Positions 3,598 to 61,002 of a DNA stretch of 64,000 nt are shown here, piece by piece. Within the stretch, counting starts at the first letter, position 1. Every line of letters starts with the position of its first letter. The DNA is from Octopus vulgaris (Eukaryota), in contig OX597814.1 of assembly GCA_951406725.2 (NCBI GenBank), forward strand, positions 50,096,001 through 50,160,000. The letters run 5' to 3'. Below the pieces are notes generated by a model, which worked only from the letters and a program-made list of their open reading frames with translations, searched no databases and was not told the DNA's origin. A program made the position numbers and the translations under genes.

Positions 3598-3640
3598 CCA
3601 CTACAAATGTTTCATGTCTGCTCCGACAATCTTCAGGTGG
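3598..3640 (-). ncRNA. Type-I minimal hammerhead ribozyme in a ~280-bp non-coding element (3418-3700) between (TA)n tracts
   Basis: Minus strand: CCAC-CTGAAGA-tTGTC ggagca GACAt-GAAA-CATTTG-TA-GTGG. Stems I and II present, intact core, near-palindromic stem III, GUA site. Confidence 0.8.
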
Positions 3641-4004
3641 ATTTTCGATCTTCTAATCAGTATCAAATTACAAAATAGCACTCACAACCCCTATCTCAAT
3701 TTATATATATATATATATATATACATATATACATATATATATATATATTTATATGTATATATGTAGATATGTAAGAATGTAAGTATATATGTATGTATGT
3801 GTGTGTATGTATGTATGTATGTATGTATGTATGTATGTATGTATGTGTATATACATACATATATACTTACGTATATGTACACGTGTTTACAATATGAATC
3901 TTCGAAGATAGTTGCACCCATCCATACCTTCCAAGTAAGTTTATATATGTATATATATACACATATACATATATATATACACATATGAGTGTGTGTGTGT
4001 ATGT

Positions 4005-4215
4005 GCATGTGTGTGTGTATTTATCTCCTCACCATCGTTTGGCAACCGATGTAGGTGTGTTTGTGTCTCCAAACCTTAGCGGTTCGGCAAATGAAAACTA
4101 TAGAATAAGTACTGGGTATACAAAGAATAAGTCCTGGGGTTAATTTGTTAGATTAAAGGTGGTGCTCCAGCATAGTCACAATCAAATGACTGAAACAAGT
4201 AAAAGTATAAAAGAA
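4005..4215 (+). mobile_element. tRNA-SINE family A, 3' half only
   Basis: Matches the 3' half of 9600-10022 (CTTAGCGGTTCGGCAAA...GGTGCTCCAGCAT...TGACTGAAACAAGTAAAAG). Confidence 0.85.
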
Positions 4216-4646
4216 TATATGTATGGGTGTGGCTTTAAATCAAAAGTACCAGGATCGATTCTTTAACGCGGTACCCCCACATGGCCGGAGGATAATGACT
4301 GAAATAAGTAAAATAATAAAAGATATATACATATGTATGTATGTATATATATATATATATATATATATATATATATATATATGGGTATGTATGTATGTAT
4401 GTATTTATATGTATGCCAACAAACAAACACACACACATACACTCGCACACACATACATACGCACATATCTATGTACGCATGAATCTATTATATATATACT
4501 GTATGTATAATATATATGCATATATAATATATATATACACACACGCATACATATATATAAATGTATATATACATATAGACAGATAATTCATGCGCACATG
4601 CATAGATGCATACATAATTTTTCTAAATTGAATTATTTAATTGTTA

Positions 4647-4682
4647 CAGTTAAAAAAGTCTCAATTACTGAAACCGGTACTG
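4647..4682 (+). ncRNA. Degenerate hammerhead-like motif
   Basis: CAG-TTAAAAA-AGT ctcaatt ACT-GAAA-CCGG-TA-CTG. All three stems and the palindrome ACCGGT are present, but catalytic G5 is A. Confidence 0.45.
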
Positions 4683-56199: not shown

Positions 56200-58280
56200 A
56201 ACTGGTTTATTCTTTATTCCTCCTGTTTTCCTCAGTTACTTTTCTTGCTAACTATTTACCATGAAATTTAATATTTCTATATATCTTCTATTATTGTTCT
56301 TGGTCTTTCTAACAGCCTCTGTTTAATGGGTTCTTTAAACATAATAATACATATTGCATTTTTGTTTTGCTCATAATTTGTAGCTCTGTGTGTTAAGTTT
56401 TCAGTATACTTTACTGCATATGTTACAAGAATTTGATAGTTTACTGTTTTTCGTTAAATATAACATGTCCTTGTTGGCTAATTGGTGCTTTCTCAATGCA
56501 GTATTCTCTTTGTGTATCTTCTGATATTTTTAACACCCGCATCTTCTGATAGTGAAATATTCTACCGCTAACTTAGTACTAGAAAAGCTAGAATATTGGT
56601 AGGTTTTGCCTTATTTTTGGTATTTATCTGTTTTGAGTATTAATCTACTACCCCTTTATAACCTTTTCTTTAAATTGTGTGTGTTTTACTCTGCGTAGTT
56701 TATTTGTTTCAAAGTAATTACAAGTCGTTTTTACTCCGATTCTCTTATCTCTGTTCCGTTAGCTAAAATGATATTTGTGTTATTTTGCTTTTAATATAAT
56801 GTTCATCTCTTCAATGTTCCTTGTTACAAATTTTGTAAACTGAATTTCATACCAATTTCCCTACTGAATCCATCAACTGCATATAATAATATTTCCAATT
56901 GTTTGACATCTGCAATAAGCAGTTTGACGTCATACATATACAGACGATAGTTGATTGTCATCCCATATCACTTCTATCTGCATTCAGGCATGAGCGCCAG
57001 ACAGTAAGTAGTGGAGGAAAAGAGAAAGAGATAGAAAGAATGGAAGAGAGTTCTCTTGGAATATTCTTCTTATAATAGGTATGAGTCTTGTTCATATATA
57101 ATTCCCATTTTTGATTGGATCTTCAAAATTGTTTTCCAACTATTAATGCCATGTTTGTTGTACATAAGTGTTATTCGTGTTAAGTTACTCAGGAATAATA
57201 TATTTTAAAATCCATGGCTAAGGAACATTATTAACCGCTTTCTACTGATCATTGCATGCCACGCTCAGACCTTTTTCTACATCTACAATCTTCAGTAATG
57301 CTCTCCTTTATCAGTAAATGATCTTCACTCCCATATGTTCCTTTACGACATATCTTAAGTTGTTCTGAATCTCTGCAGCATTTTTTGTTTCAAATGACCA
57401 TTTATCCTTTGCAATAATATTTCTGTTAAGGCTCTGTATACAGTAGGCAGTTTATGGCTCTGCATTTTTTAGATTTTTTTATTATTTTGTTAGTCTTTAG
57501 GATTAAGATGGCTTTCCCCTCAGTCAGCCATTAACGTGTTATTTCTGTCTCTTTCAGGCGATCAATCAATATTTTTGCAACTTTGTGCTTACTTGCCAGA
57601 AGTTTCGAATTTTATGGTTCCCGGGTGCTTTCGAATTGTTCGGGTTTTGTAGTATATGGACTACTATTTAGATTGCTATTTCTGCATACAATTCTTTTGT
57701 TGTTGCGAGTGTTGATTTGAAGACTCTTGCCTGTGGCTATCTTTTTACCGTCCATACCCCTCCCCAAATTCTTTTTTGCATTTTCTTGCTGCTGATGTTG
57801 CAATAGCTTCTATTTCGTCTTTACATAGTTCTTGGTAAAATCATTTTGGGTGCAGTGCAACTTTGTTTCCTTCACAGGCGATTTGTTGCTTTTTATAACG
57901 AAGGAATTTCTTTGAGATTTAGTAAAGATCTCTTGTTTTAAACGTTGTTTGATATTGGCTAATTATTTTCTGTTATATTATATTCCTGTAGCATATATTT
58001 TCTCTTTTGCTTTTCATATATGTATTTTCGTCACTGATGTAATTAAGAATTGAGAAATGCTATGCTTTACATTCTATCTCTCAATGTACGTTTGTATTTC
58101 AAGTTCGGAAATGCTTAGAGGCGGTAACCAGATTATTTTATGACTACTGTAGTTGTTACATTATTTGGTTTATGCTGGTGAGTTTGTGGTTAGAATCTGT
58201 ATTCACTTAAATGTCTGCAAACCACAGCGGCCAGGTTTTATTACTACTGAAATTTTTACTTCCTTTATATATTCTGATAT
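56200..58280 (-). mobile_element. Highly decayed R4/Dong-type RT region
   Basis: Minus frames: WLTEGKAILI, CRKGTYGSEDHLLI, GIFQENSL-like and INYRLYMYDVKLL...FSREIGMKF. Confidence 0.75.
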
Positions 58281-60554
58281 ATCATTTTTATTTTTCGTAG
58301 AGTAATATCATTTTTGGTCCATAAGAAAATCGATCACAAATAGGGCACGACAACACACCGACTACACACATTCAACATAATGCACACACAATATTAGCTG
58401 TATATATACACGTAAGTGCGCGCGCGTGCTCGTGAATCTTTAGAACAATTAGGTACACGTTTATTTTGAATATGTTCCTGCACACGAGAATGTGAATGGT
58501 ATTGATACAAGATTTTGCCTGGCTCAACAAAATTTTCCCCTATAAGCTTTTGTGTATAAAACATACGAAGCTCAAAATAACGTCAGAGAACTATCAGACA
58601 CGTTATGTTGTTGGATTGATATTGCCTACACATTTGGAGCTAGGCATAAACTTTTGTTCCTCTATAAAAAACAGTAAACATTTGCTGGTATGTGTTGAGT
58701 TTTACCAAGTTGAAATGAATTCAGTATAAGCACATGAAGCAGCGAGTATCAAATTAATGATGTATACATTTACTTTTAACACGTCCGTGTCCACTAGAAT
58801 TGAATAGCATTCATTGTGATTTATATCTATGTATATAAATACACAGAATTATAGCTATACATACATTTATGCATACATATATAAATACATATATATATAT
58901 ATATATATATATAGCGGGAGAGAGAGAGAGAGAGAGAGAGAGAGGGTGGGAGAGAAAAGTGAAAGGGGTACAGGGAACTTACACTTGTGAAGGAGATTAA
59001 GGAAAAATGACGGGTTGTAGTGTTTTTTATAGAGTGGATATTATTAGAACTGGTCGTGCGTAGGCTAGCGAGCAAAGTACGAGAAGAAAAATGGTTGAGA
59101 CACTTTGAATCAAGGGGTATATCAGAATTAGTGTTTTATGAGTCGAAGTGAGCTTCAGTAGCTCGTGCTGCACTGTGCTTTAGGACAGGAATATTCGTAT
59201 TAAATAAATGGCGATTGGATGGAGGCCATATGCGTGGATTTTTAGCTAAGATGTTCTCGTGCCAAATAGATACAGTCGAAAGTTTTGCTGGTGTCAAGTA
59301 CAACAAATTTTCTTTTGCAAGGGAATGAATAACCACCATCTAACAAATAAACTACAGTTCACATTAGTTCTTAGCACACATATGTAAAGCTGAGGACTGA
59401 TTAATCTTGTAAAACAAATATTTAATATTTGTTTCGTATATCATATTTAACACTTATTTCTGGAAAGATATCTCTTCTGGCATTTAAAAAGTAAAATAAC
59501 CTCACAGTTTTTTGTCTCTACATGTAAGTCAAGACGTATGTGAATAATATGTGATCAGTATCAGTTAGTCACAGTATATTCAATATTATGTATGTGTTGA
59601 CGTATTGAGAAAGCCATACGATATGTTTTATATATGCAATATACTGTGATTTATTTCTTTAGTATATGATTTCCAATTCAAAATTTATTTGCAATTTGTA
59701 GGTCGTTTTAGTCTGCTAATTTTCGTTAACTGTTAAACGGCTTATTTCAACCAATACATATTTATGCTAGATAGGGTTTCTCTGCGTCAAAAGTTTTATA
59801 TTCTTATTTTCAATTTTAAGGGGGTTTAATTTGATGTTGTTTGCTATACTTTCAATCCCCACACTTTATCTGTTTCCTTGTTAATAAAAACAACATTGAA
59901 AGCTTTTAAGAAGAAATAAAGCGCATTGAAAATCCTTGTCCAAAAATTGAGAAGTAATTCAGAATACAGACGGAATGTAATATTAAAATCTTTAGATAAT
60001 TCTTAATTTGAAGTAAAAAAAAAGTGTTTTCTTCTGTTGTGAATATATTCACTATTCACCTTTGAACAAAAAGAAATATATTATTTCGAATAGAAAATAC
60101 AAAAATGTGAAATTAGAATTTCTAGATTAGTTTAAAAATCACAATATCTGATCTGGGAATGTTCACCGTTGTCATAGTTCCTTCCATCTAAAACACACCT
60201 TACATTCATATATATTTTTCTATTTATATGGCAGAAAGTTTAACCTCCGGTTATGAAGCTAATACTTGAAGCATAATTCTATTGTTTGCTAATAATGAAG
60301 ATTATATGATGTCGACAGAGGAAATCAACAATAGATACCCAGTGGAATTGGTACCGAATTGATTTTATATTTTATATCCCCTGATCATAAGCATTGTTGA
60401 TAAATTAAAATTAATTAATTATTATTGCACTGAATGGCGAATACGTAAAATTTTTAATATATTTGAAAATAAACCGAACGTATTTTTTTCCTGCCGAAAC
60501 TTTGCGACTTGAACAAATGTAAACAAATGTCTGTTGCAATCTCATTTGGGGGAA

Positions 60555-60592
60555 TTGACTTGTTTCGAACTTAATAGGGTCCTTCTTCGGAA
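60555..60592 (-). ncRNA. Hammerhead-like motif (U4C, weak stem I)
   Basis: TT-CCGAAGA-a-GGAC cctattaa GTTC-GAAA-CAAG-TC-AA. Confidence 0.4.
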
Positions 60593-60865
60593 GACGCGTG
60601 GTATATCCAATGTATAATATTGTTCAATGGCGTTCATTATTGTATTTTGCGCATGTGAATAGTATGTACGTTTTGCTTATGTATGTATATGTATGTATAT
60701 ATGTATTTTTTATATGTATATATATACATATATATGTATTTTTTATATGTATATATATATATATATATGTATTTTTGGATACTTGTTTATTGTTTATTTG
60801 TATATAATAAGTAATACGTGCAGCATGTTTAGTATATAAATATTATATTAATAAAGTTAATTATA

Positions 60866-61002
60866 ACCTCTGATGAGGCCTATGGTTCTTTTAACATATA
60901 AGTATTATATTTTTTTTAATGCCTACAACCCTAATATGTTGACATCTATAGGCAATGAAAATTAGATTCACTTTTGACCATAGGCTGAAACAGCTGTAAG
61001 AA
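60866..61002 (+). ncRNA. Hammerhead ribozyme with ~90-nt stem-II loop
   Basis: CTGATGA (60870)-GGCCTATGGT...ACCATAGGCT-GAAA-CAGCTG-TA. 10-bp stem II and palindromic stem III; stem I is weak. Confidence 0.7.

Follow-up and report, generated by a model that had tools for sequence, protein, structure and literature searches.

Non-coding retrozymes carrying hammerhead ribozymes are known from animals such as a coral, with >6000 motifs in 16 families, and the axolotl, with 120,000 copies, and are described as co-occurring with Penelope-like elements (PLEs), of which they were proposed to be non-autonomous derivatives (PMC7229834; bioRxiv 10.64898/2026.07.22.740005). Of 9 predicted retrozyme dimers in the 2026 preprint, just 1 was cleaved in vitro (bioRxiv 10.64898/2026.07.22.740005), so that intact-looking motifs need not be active. 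For PLEs, a two-site, two-strand reaction has an in vitro precedent in the anole Poseidon PAc (PMC11167929, available sections), and the Penelope promoter was reported as LINE-like, TATA-less, and internal (PMC2377424, available sections). Because it has already been published that an animal genome can contain many families of hammerheads and that these are linked to PLEs (PMC7229834; bioRxiv 10.64898/2026.07.22.740005), the main observation presented here adds a host, not a kind.

Hammerhead motifs and their hosts in the window

The window, i.e., the whole 64-kb stretch of octopus DNA analyzed, was inspected for hammerhead motifs at 12 sites listed in an earlier note. All 12 had a recognizable type I hammerhead layout, with the topology and stem III palindromes that the note had described. 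The following features were annotated in the window.

3430..3669, minus strand: family A, a ~250-nt element with a fixed 5′ end; intact minimal hammerhead at 3598-3640
4608..4735, plus strand: family B, the 3′-terminal part of a longer element; hammerhead at 4647-4682, core damaged (G5>A)
10105..10415, minus strand: family C, pLTR of an old Hydra-type PLE; hammerhead at 10160-10265 with a 77-nt stem II arm and C3>A
10560..11116, plus strand: family D, 364-nt tandem retrozyme with an inverted 5′ arm; hammerhead at 10905-10946, U3-A8 core
11157..11845, minus strand: family E, ~490-nt tandem retrozyme with an inverted arm; hammerhead at 11279-11385 with a 68-nt stem II arm
12304..13960, plus strand: family F, 564-nt tandem retrozyme, a single insertion with two direct units and an inverted arm
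12599-12651 (minus), 13161-13213 (plus), and 13725-13777 (plus): hammerheads of family F
14020..15370, minus strand: decayed Hydra-like PLE remnant, endonuclease end, matching the EN region of a related PLE in locus L327
15345..16925, plus strand: decayed Hydra-type PLE remnant with RT and GIY-YIG, ~73% DNA identity to an intact family
17690..17890, minus strand: family G, a ~200-nt element; hammerhead at 17787-17821, U4C core, 2-bp stem III
18291..19587, plus strand: more distant Hydra-like PLE remnant, likewise decayed, whose protein is 32-41% identical to the intact Hydra-type ORF
51013..51646, minus strand: family H, 3′ end of a decayed Penelope/Poseidon-type PLE, including the first of two end sites
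51073-51133, minus strand: hammerhead of family H, stem III disrupted in the window copy
51205..51276, minus strand: tRNA-like head inside the family H pLTR, with A- and B-box-like motifs
51320..51646, minus strand: GIY-YIG endonuclease remnant of the family H PLE, matching locus L220 at 1801-2127
60380..60594, minus strand: element I, 5′-truncated hammerhead; ribozyme at 60555-60594, U4C core
60595..61213, plus strand: family J, 3′ end of an AT-rich element >1 kb; hammerhead at 60868-61000 with an 11-bp stem II, a 110-nt arm, and a 2-bp stem I

The figure of about 12 motifs held for the motifs themselves, but those at 12599, 13161, and 13725 were identical copies within one tandem-plus-inverted insertion, so that the 12 motifs correspond to only 10 insertions, and only 7 passed a hammerhead descriptor. 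Window copies that failed it were damaged or truncated, through changes in the core (G5>A at 4647 and C3>A at 10160), a disrupted stem III (51073), or a truncated stem I (60555). The short stem I at 60866 (2 bp) was also found in the other copies of that family. Matches to the descriptor (7 in the window) exceeded the frequency in 200 block-wise dinucleotide shuffles of the window (mean, 0.78; maximum, 4), as did palindromic matches (5 versus 0.06). Searches with Rfam, of the entire window and of two short cut-outs, gave no match to a hammerhead family. The repeat search over the whole window was dominated by microsatellites.

The earlier note had proposed a community of ribozyme retroelements comprising several independent non-autonomous families, mobilized by PLEs that target (TA)n, such as those left as remnants at 14-20 kb. 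The proposal that every motif marks such a family and that the window is a special community is improbable as a whole, even though families D, E, and F consist of non-coding tandem repeats inserted in (TA)n and the remnants are of the Hydra type, a clade described as (TA)n-targeting (PMC8557442). The 600 kb sampled elsewhere in the genome contained 46 descriptor matches, and since motif density thus equals the genome background, the window is not a special community. Families C and H were annotated as pLTRs of ORF-bearing PLEs, and for these two the proposal is largely refuted; family H avoids (TA)n, and the 3′ motif of families E and F was common to other families, so that not all families are unrelated. 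Families D, E, and F are true non-autonomous tandem elements, and the refuting case named in the note, that every family is a solo pLTR of an already described autonomous PLE, held in part, as the 10160 (C) and 51073 (H) motifs are pLTRs of protein-coding PLEs. Hosts were bounded by (TA)n in most cases, with 8 of 10 3′ ends ≤40 nt from a (TA)5+ run (exceptions, 51073 and 60555), and the description of hosts as ORF-less failed for the 51073 host with its GIY-YIG remnant. All three PLE remnants at 14-20 kb were real, two by tblastn and the third via the related copy in L327.

Copies of the remaining families were examined at fetched loci, where A, B, G, I, and J were never joined to a PLE ORF in this small sample. 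Family A (1078 candidates) included best copies that were 100% identical, and all 20 fetched copies were descriptor positive. Six other copies of family B were found among the fetched loci, with a family core of the U3-A8 type. Family C was annotated as the pLTR of a protein-coding Hydra-type PLE, as 2 of 8 extended loci contained Hydra-like RT/EN upstream of it; 7 of 15 copies were descriptor positive. A reading of the 10160 core as a non-canonical insertion was rejected, the true core lying 77 nt upstream. Family G, with a mostly fixed 5′ end, had a copy in 8 of 60 sampled 10-kb stretches, and no further copy of the ribozyme part of element I was found, which does not prove rarity. Family J (651 candidates, 92-97% identical) showed no ORF of its own; the PLE adjoining it in L327 was rejected as its ORF, being a different element separated from it by a (TA)n run.

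Tandem retrozymes and the ends of insertions

Families D, E, and F were annotated as young non-coding tandem repeats of the known non-LTR retrozyme kind, with one type I hammerhead per unit and periods of 364, ~490, and 564 nt, respectively. Candidates numbered 2235 for D (97-99% identical), 2036 for E, and 2022 for F (98-99% identical), with 28 of 30, 20 of 20, and 20 of 20 copies, respectively, being descriptor positive and up to 4 tandem units seen in E arrays. The longest stop-to-stop frame in the window elements was 114 aa, antisense in F, and no PLE protein matched at these places in the window. Predicted circular folds of the monomers were 61-64% paired (z = -10.8, -6.9, and -5.7 for D, E, and F; 40 shuffles each). 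Differences between family D and a related 353-nt family were compensated (U3-A8 versus C3-G8), with stem II and the palindrome both changed. Family D and family H sequences were also present in sequencing-run contigs under several organism labels, with no run recorded as RNA among those listed.

It is highly improbable that duplication at the DNA level spread the tandem families as satellites, with the ribozyme as a relic. Units were near-identical within an array, and satellite-style local amplification is discussed in the available part of the preprint (bioRxiv 10.64898/2026.07.22.740005); against this, the arrays were short, 5′ variable, and dispersed over all chromosomes, contained inverted arms, and ended at two fixed 3′ sites in (TA)n.

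Two-armed insertions of families A, D, E, F, and H had one arm at each of two fixed sites in 52 of 55 cases, and none of the 55 had the same end class on both arms. This rule of one end of each class is the PLE “tail” signature, and it supports the suggestion that PLE machinery mobilized the elements. The 3′ ends adjoined (TA)n/(TAA)n in 25/27 (A), 37/46 (D), 15/16 (E), and 15/15 (F) cases, compared to a background of 6%, so that the predicted enrichment was found in these families but not in H, in which only 3 of 39 3′ ends adjoined (TA)n; not all families therefore share one target.

The genome also holds intact Hydra-type and Neptune-type PLEs. The Hydra-type frame of 727 aa was repeated across many chromosomes, as in a large, recently spreading family, and contained RWK, DKT, a CxCX5C linker, and, at the C terminus, GIY-YIG without CCHH; there was no Pfam match to this ORF. 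The element, an intact relative of the remnant at 15345-16925, was placed in the Hydra clade by these motifs, which were checked against the list in PMC8557442. It had a hammerhead in its pLTR, a (TA)n target and flanks, a tail of ~70 nt, and the same two ends and inversions as the two-armed insertions. Neither of the two intact PLEs matched D, E, or F at the level of the pLTR, so neither was identified as a partner, and in the fetched loci no continuation past the 3′ ends of D, E, or F toward one was found. The presence of young retrozymes beside intact Hydra- and Neptune-type PLEs makes partner assignment testable.

The motifs are probably hammerheads in PLE ends and in non-coding elements that were likely copied by the same enzymes through a two-site mechanism. 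If the RT/GIY-YIG protein acts as the Poseidon protein of the anole does, it would nick the two strands of a target that is (TA)n or AT-rich, and reverse transcription would start within the RNA downstream of the ribozyme, at one of two fixed sites for each strand. Two start sites would account for the observed two-armed insertions, in which only one arm has the longer tail. An RNA template that was multimeric or circular may have produced the tandem arrays of D, E, and F, and the 5′ end of a linear RNA would yield short solo pLTRs with a fixed 5′ boundary, as seen for H and as is likely for A and G. Cleavage of multimeric RNA into units is the probable role of the ribozyme, which insertion itself probably does not require. 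The 52/55 rule gives genomic support to retrozyme insertion by the two-site, two-strand PLE reaction known in vitro, and the one-of-each-end rule offers an easy test for PLE dependence.

A tRNA-like head in a Penelope/Poseidon-type PLE

New among these results is the assignment, based on sequence, of the 51,073 motif to a decayed Poseidon-type PLE with a pLTR starting with a tRNA-like head. The order in the window was GIY-YIG remnant, head, (AAT)n linker, and hammerhead; the order of ORF, head, and ribozyme was found in 6 of 20 extended loci, and locus L306 had the order of head, ribozyme, and ORF, starting at the head and running into the ORF. The majority sequence of 23 copies (2.65 kb) contained one ORF, a frame of 848 aa, with the ribozyme at the ORF start, an RT matching RVT_1 (E = 5.5e-10), and a tail of ~30-40 nt. 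Motifs in loci L299, L283, and L288 (DKG, RT, and, at the C terminus, GIY-YIG with CCHH, but no linker zinc finger) place the family putatively in the Penelope/Poseidon clade; a homologue search with the protein returned mostly unnamed proteins, none with a clade name. Of 363 candidates, 150 were scored, and none of these had an intact ORF, the longest frame without a stop being 465 aa; among the matches listed, no contig from sequencing runs clearly spanned the head-ORF joint.

Starting at its first base, the majority sequence of the head could be aligned with no gap to a tRNA-Arg gene from the same genome (40/61 identical; 0 of 300 shuffles as good), and comparison with 25 distinct tRNA genes gave 61 and 59 for Arg, 56 for Ala, and 55 for Cys, values compatible with more than one isotype. 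Neither Rfam nor ARAGORN called the head a tRNA; for the window, both tools were negative, as was Rfam for tRNAs in the cut-outs, and a relaxed ARAGORN run on the loci gave only doubtful calls. Short copies mostly (21/24) started at -11 to +4 from the first base of the head. The 5′ boundary of family H is this tRNA-like head, which belongs to the protein-coding element.

Short copies resemble SINEs in their tRNA-related 5′ head with A and B boxes (Rfam and ARAGORN negative), and they far outnumbered long ones, with pLTR pieces in 4 of 60 sampled stretches and the ORF in 0 of 60. They were also slightly more diverged from the majority (92% versus 94%). It is nevertheless unlikely that family H propagates itself as a SINE by means of borrowed PLE enzymes, with short copies begetting short copies and the head captured secondarily by the coding element. 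The head was fixed in ORF-bearing copies, and the short copies were not a non-autonomous lineage distinct from such a partner. No fixed difference separated 33 solo from 11 ORF-linked pLTR matches, a comparison weakened by a solo sample partly chosen by similarity to the window copy. Short copies also stop at the initiation sites, without the downstream RNA that the anole protein needs according to the available text of PMC11167929.

The 2.65-kb majority sequence contained no TTTT run and no GGGG run. The Neptune-type ORF, with similar T content, had 9 TTTT runs in 2325 nt but likewise no GGGG run, and the Hydra-type ORF had 16 TTTT runs in 2181 nt. The start of short copies at the head and the lack of TTTT hint at Pol III transcription, with the head as a likely internal promoter. 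A further reading is tentative and somewhat unlikely: family H would be a protein-coding PLE transcribed end to end by Pol III from a tRNA-derived promoter in the pLTR, with TTTT purged, the hammerhead possibly opening the uncapped RNA for translation, and the SINE-like copies being by-products of reverse transcription starting 250-290 nt from the RNA 5′ end. Evenly balanced between true and false is the view that Pol III transcripts from the head are always short, or that the head is merely carried along, that the coding RNA is Pol II read-through of tandem copies, and that the lack of TTTT is chance. Probabilities for zero TTTT were only 0.007 (base shuffle), 0.043 (synonymous recoding), and 0.07 (dinucleotide shuffle), GGGG runs were absent too, and autonomous elements were argued to require Pol II because Pol III is poorly processive (PMC10886601); the TTTT runs in the other two PLE ORFs and the continuation of L306 from the head into the ORF argue against it. 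If Pol III driven, a tRNA-headed PLE would contradict the expectation that autonomous retrotransposons need Pol II and would blur the boundary between SINEs and solo pLTRs. The end-to-end Pol III reading, if true, would imply an autonomous Pol III retrotransposon and a direct route from PLEs to SINE-like elements.

Comparison with described elements

Families D, E, and F resemble metazoan non-LTR retrozymes (Cervera and de la Pena 2020, PMC7229834; Li, Clavereau, Pollet 2026, bioRxiv 10.64898/2026.07.22.740005) in their short tandem units with one type I hammerhead each, as described in the available portions of both sources, which contain no octopus data. The E and F units (~490 and 564 nt) exceed the 170-400 nt given in PMC7229834 but fall within the 51-972 of the preprint, and PLE mobilization of the octopus retrozymes is backed by insertion ends, not by pLTR homology. 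The octopus Hydra-type PLE has the GIY-YIG, RWK, DKT, CxCX5C, pLTR hammerhead, (TA)n insertion, and one-end tail of described Hydra-clade PLEs (Craig et al. 2021, PMC8557442), with a tail of ~70 nt compared to 30-40.

Family H resembles Poseidon of Anolis carolinensis, PAc (Frangieh et al. 2024, PMC11167929), in having a ribozyme that overlaps the ORF start, with two internal RT starts defining the tail, cutting of both target strands, and an AT-rich target as further points in common; the available text describes no tRNA-like head for PAc. In the SINE-like elements SM-alpha and Sj-alpha of Schistosoma (PMC6765202, review), a Pol III promoter is likewise followed by a hammerhead, but these are non-coding tandem elements, whereas the head and ribozyme of H form the end of a coding PLE and occur mostly in single copies. 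Cassandra, Helenus, and Ajax (TRIMp3; Kojima 2024, PMC10886601) have, like the putative arrangement in H, a small-RNA-derived Pol III promoter within the terminal repeat, but they are non-autonomous LTR elements of 311-1263 bp, whereas the PLE of family H, at 2.65 kb, includes RT and endonuclease.

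Hammerhead motifs in the window and the genome

The window, with a G+C content of 34% and many microsatellites, belongs to an assembly of 2.8 Gb that includes about 30 large contigs. A type I hammerhead layout, running from stem I through the core, stem II, GAAA, a short stem III, and the cleavage triplet back to stem I, was found at all 12 sites where an earlier note had placed hammerheads. These represent only 10 insertions, since a single insertion contains the motifs at 12599, 13161, and 13725, which are identical to one another. Damage or truncation affects the copies at 4647, 10160, 51073, and 60555; in the families of the first three, the form is canonical. 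Stem I of the motif at 60866 was only 2 bp long, as it was across its family. None of the window motifs was recognized by Rfam in searches of the whole window and two short cutouts. A descriptor that tolerates long stem II arms as well as U4C and U3-A8 cores matched the window 7 times, above the frequency in 200 block-wise dinucleotide shuffles (mean, 0.78; maximum, 4), with 5 palindromic matches versus 0.06 in the shuffles.

A background sample of 60 stretches of 10 kb each, placed at round coordinates across 30 contigs, contained 46 descriptor matches (20 palindromic and 7 from a single array), compared with 4 to 14 matches (0 to 1 palindromic) in 10 shuffles of the sample. Approximately 5 matches are thus expected per 64 kb; the window, with 7, is not special in hammerhead density, and its description as a distinctive ribozyme community was not borne out. 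The net rate of approximately 60 hammerheads per Mb extrapolates roughly to a genome total on the order of 10^5 motifs. Many additional hammerhead families were present in the sample. Further families, with different palindromes and stem II arms of 12 to 100 nt, were seen at loci L160, L164, L183, L184, L187, L193, L194, and L218 and included a tandem array of seven units of 353 to 359 nt.

Other features of the window were as follows.
2165-2491 and 30872-31573, plus strand: remnants of non-LTR retrotransposons, matching RVT_1 (E 3e-9) and, weakly, zf-RVT
3961-4217, 9598-10025, 11875-12261, and 45522-45944: copies of an abundant SINE-like repeat
45389-45507, plus strand: full-length match to 5S rRNA (Rfam RF00001, 100.6 bits), directly followed by a SINE-like repeat

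Host families, insertion ends, and candidate partners

Host elements were designated A (3598), B (4647), C (10160), D (10905), E (11279), F (12599, 13161, and 13725), G (17787), H (51073), I (60555), and J (60866). D, E, and F were dispersed noncoding tandem repeats (retrozymes) with periods of 364, about 490, and 564 nt and one ribozyme per unit. These families are young, with 97 to 100% identity among the 40 best copies scored from about 2,000 candidates per family. Their units folded strongly as predicted circles. D and a 353-nt relative differed at the core pair, in stem II, and in the palindrome, each time by compensated changes. Family A, about 250 nt long, started at nearly the same base in each copy and showed no tandem arrangement among 20 loci; G resembled A. 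Copies of A (L031 to L050) frequently folded back at the palindrome adjoining their start, which resembles a Pol II initiator. B and J each formed the 3' end of a longer element, for which no ORF of its own was found in the loci examined. Hydra-like reverse transcriptase/endonuclease remains lay upstream of C in 2 of the 8 loci that were extended. A search for other copies of element I found none.

The 3' ends of A, D, E, F, and H fell at two fixed sites, roughly 35 to 110 nt apart. End mapping at 115 loci yielded 95 distinct insertions after merging of loci with identical flanks, a step that also fuses some separate A copies whose flanks are pure (TA)n; 7 insertions extended beyond the locus edge. 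Two outward-facing arms were present in 55 insertions. Both end classes were represented in 52 of these, one end was unclassified in the other 3, and no such insertion carried the same class at both ends. The proposed (TA)n enrichment at insertion sites held for A, D, E, and F, whose 3' ends abutted (TA)n or (TAA)n in 25/27, 37/46, 15/16, and 15/15 cases, respectively (background, 6%), but not for H (3/39). PLE (Penelope-like element) insertions are described as having inverted arms and a tail at one end only (PMC8557442). The anole Poseidon protein is reported to cut both target strands, and the tail is delimited by the two internal positions at which reverse transcription starts; cleavage by the ribozyme was dispensable for insertion and itself required the protein (PMC11167929). 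One reverse transcription start site may thus serve each nicked target strand. At 8280-8569, a 134-nt inverted pair that is almost perfect lies between (TA)n runs; it looks like both arms of a further PLE-type insertion that was truncated ahead of any ribozyme.

With the remnant at 15345-16925 as the query, an intact PLE family was recovered (6,013 candidates). A 727-amino-acid frame was present at many loci; the tandem unit measured 3.36 kb, and the family had a hammerhead of its own, two ends, and (TA)n flanks. Its motifs match the Hydra clade definition in section 11 of PMC8557442. A second intact family, of Neptune type (12,510 candidates), had a 4.27-kb unit, frames of up to 1,199 amino acids, and its own hammerhead. 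Neither shared its pLTR (PLE end) with D, E, or F in pLTR comparisons. The suggested mobilization by PLEs is supported by the two-ended PLE-type insertions of A, D, E, F, and H. Overall, the observation in the earlier note is partly confirmed and its interpretation partly supported. Among young, intact Hydra-type copies (L111 to L116), L112 and L114 started exactly at the first 3' end site. The long Neptune-type ORF (L365 to L371) was mostly split into 454- and 775-amino-acid frames and was single (1,199 amino acids) in L370 and L371.

A D array was nested inside a PLE ORF, and a short H copy was nested inside an H-family ORF (L013, L014, and L243). A 13-nt motif, possibly a protein-binding signal, occurred near the 3' ends of E, F, several other noncoding families, and one unrelated-looking repeat (window 11695-11710 and 13335-13350; L042, L030, L127, L174, and L184), with 10 matches in the 600-kb sample versus 0 in 5 shuffles.

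A tRNA-like head in family H

Family H is a decayed Poseidon-type PLE; every copy found was decayed (92 to 94% identity to the majority sequence). Its 5' 61 bases gave a gap-free alignment with a tRNA-Arg gene from the same genome (40/61 identical) that surpassed 300 of 300 shuffles, although among the 25 distinct tRNA genes compared the scores of other isotypes were close. The head was not called as a tRNA by Rfam or ARAGORN. The head of the abundant SINE-like repeat also scored against tRNA genes of this genome.

The sequence after the H head led straight into the PLE ORF, as in L306, which starts with the head. The order ORF end, about 40 nt, head, (AAT)n, ribozyme, and tail was found in 6 of 20 extended loci, two others of which had internal deletions, and an endonuclease remnant lay upstream of the window copy. 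The head lies inside a protein-coding element. Starts fell within -11 to +4 of the head's first base in 21 of the 24 other best-matching copies, none of which extended more than 17 nt upstream of that base. Solo (n = 33) and ORF-linked (n = 11) matches showed no fixed difference, the solo set having been partly picked by likeness to the window copy. Given the head-ORF join, the fixed start, and this lack of difference, the short H copies appear to be cDNAs whose synthesis was primed close to the 5' end of RNA from the element itself. Ohshima and Okada reportedly described three tRNA-derived octopus SINEs in 1994, and the short H copies could be among them.

The majority sequence of 23 copies (2,653 nt with one 848-amino-acid frame) contained no run of four T's, compared with expectations of 4.7 (base shuffle, P = 0.007), 2.9 (synonymous recoding, P = 0.043), and 2.4 (dinucleotide shuffle, P = 0.07); GGGG was likewise absent. 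Individual copies, which are not independent, contained 19 TTTT runs versus 88 expected. The Neptune-type ORF, similar to H in T content, had 9 TTTT runs in 2,325 nt and no GGGG, and the Hydra-type ORF had 16 in 2,181 nt. The absence of TTTT in H is suggestive of Pol III read-through. That H is a protein-coding PLE transcribed end to end by Pol III from the head in its own pLTR is a tentative and rather doubtful reading. Predicted ribozyme cleavage would remove the first ATG. Ribozyme cleavage can reportedly induce cap-independent translation in viral untranslated regions and plant reporters (PMC13725137, 2026); by analogy, one might speculate that it does so in H.

Comparison with known systems

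Many hammerhead families per genome, together with tandem retrozymes and PLEs as likely movers, have been described in coral, mussel, and axolotl (PMC7229834, whose main text lacks the word "octopus"). A 2026 preprint covering 35 genomes, of which 31 are vertebrate, argues that pLTRs gave rise to retrozymes and reports cleavage of 1 of 9 tested retrozyme dimers (bioRxiv 10.64898/2026.07.22.740005). The hammerhead families here are of this already known kind. No description of octopus or cephalopod hammerheads or retrozymes, or of a tRNA-headed or Pol III-transcribed PLE, was found in the literature searched, mostly open-access papers; octopus families may be listed in the supplements of PMC8557442. 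The PLE with a tRNA-like head represents a new variant. Schistosome SINE-like repeats combine a Pol III promoter with a hammerhead (PMC6765202). TRIMs also carry small-RNA heads in their terminal repeats but are nonautonomous (PMC10886601), and Penelope has a LINE-like promoter (PMC2377424), in contrast to the tRNA-like head of H.
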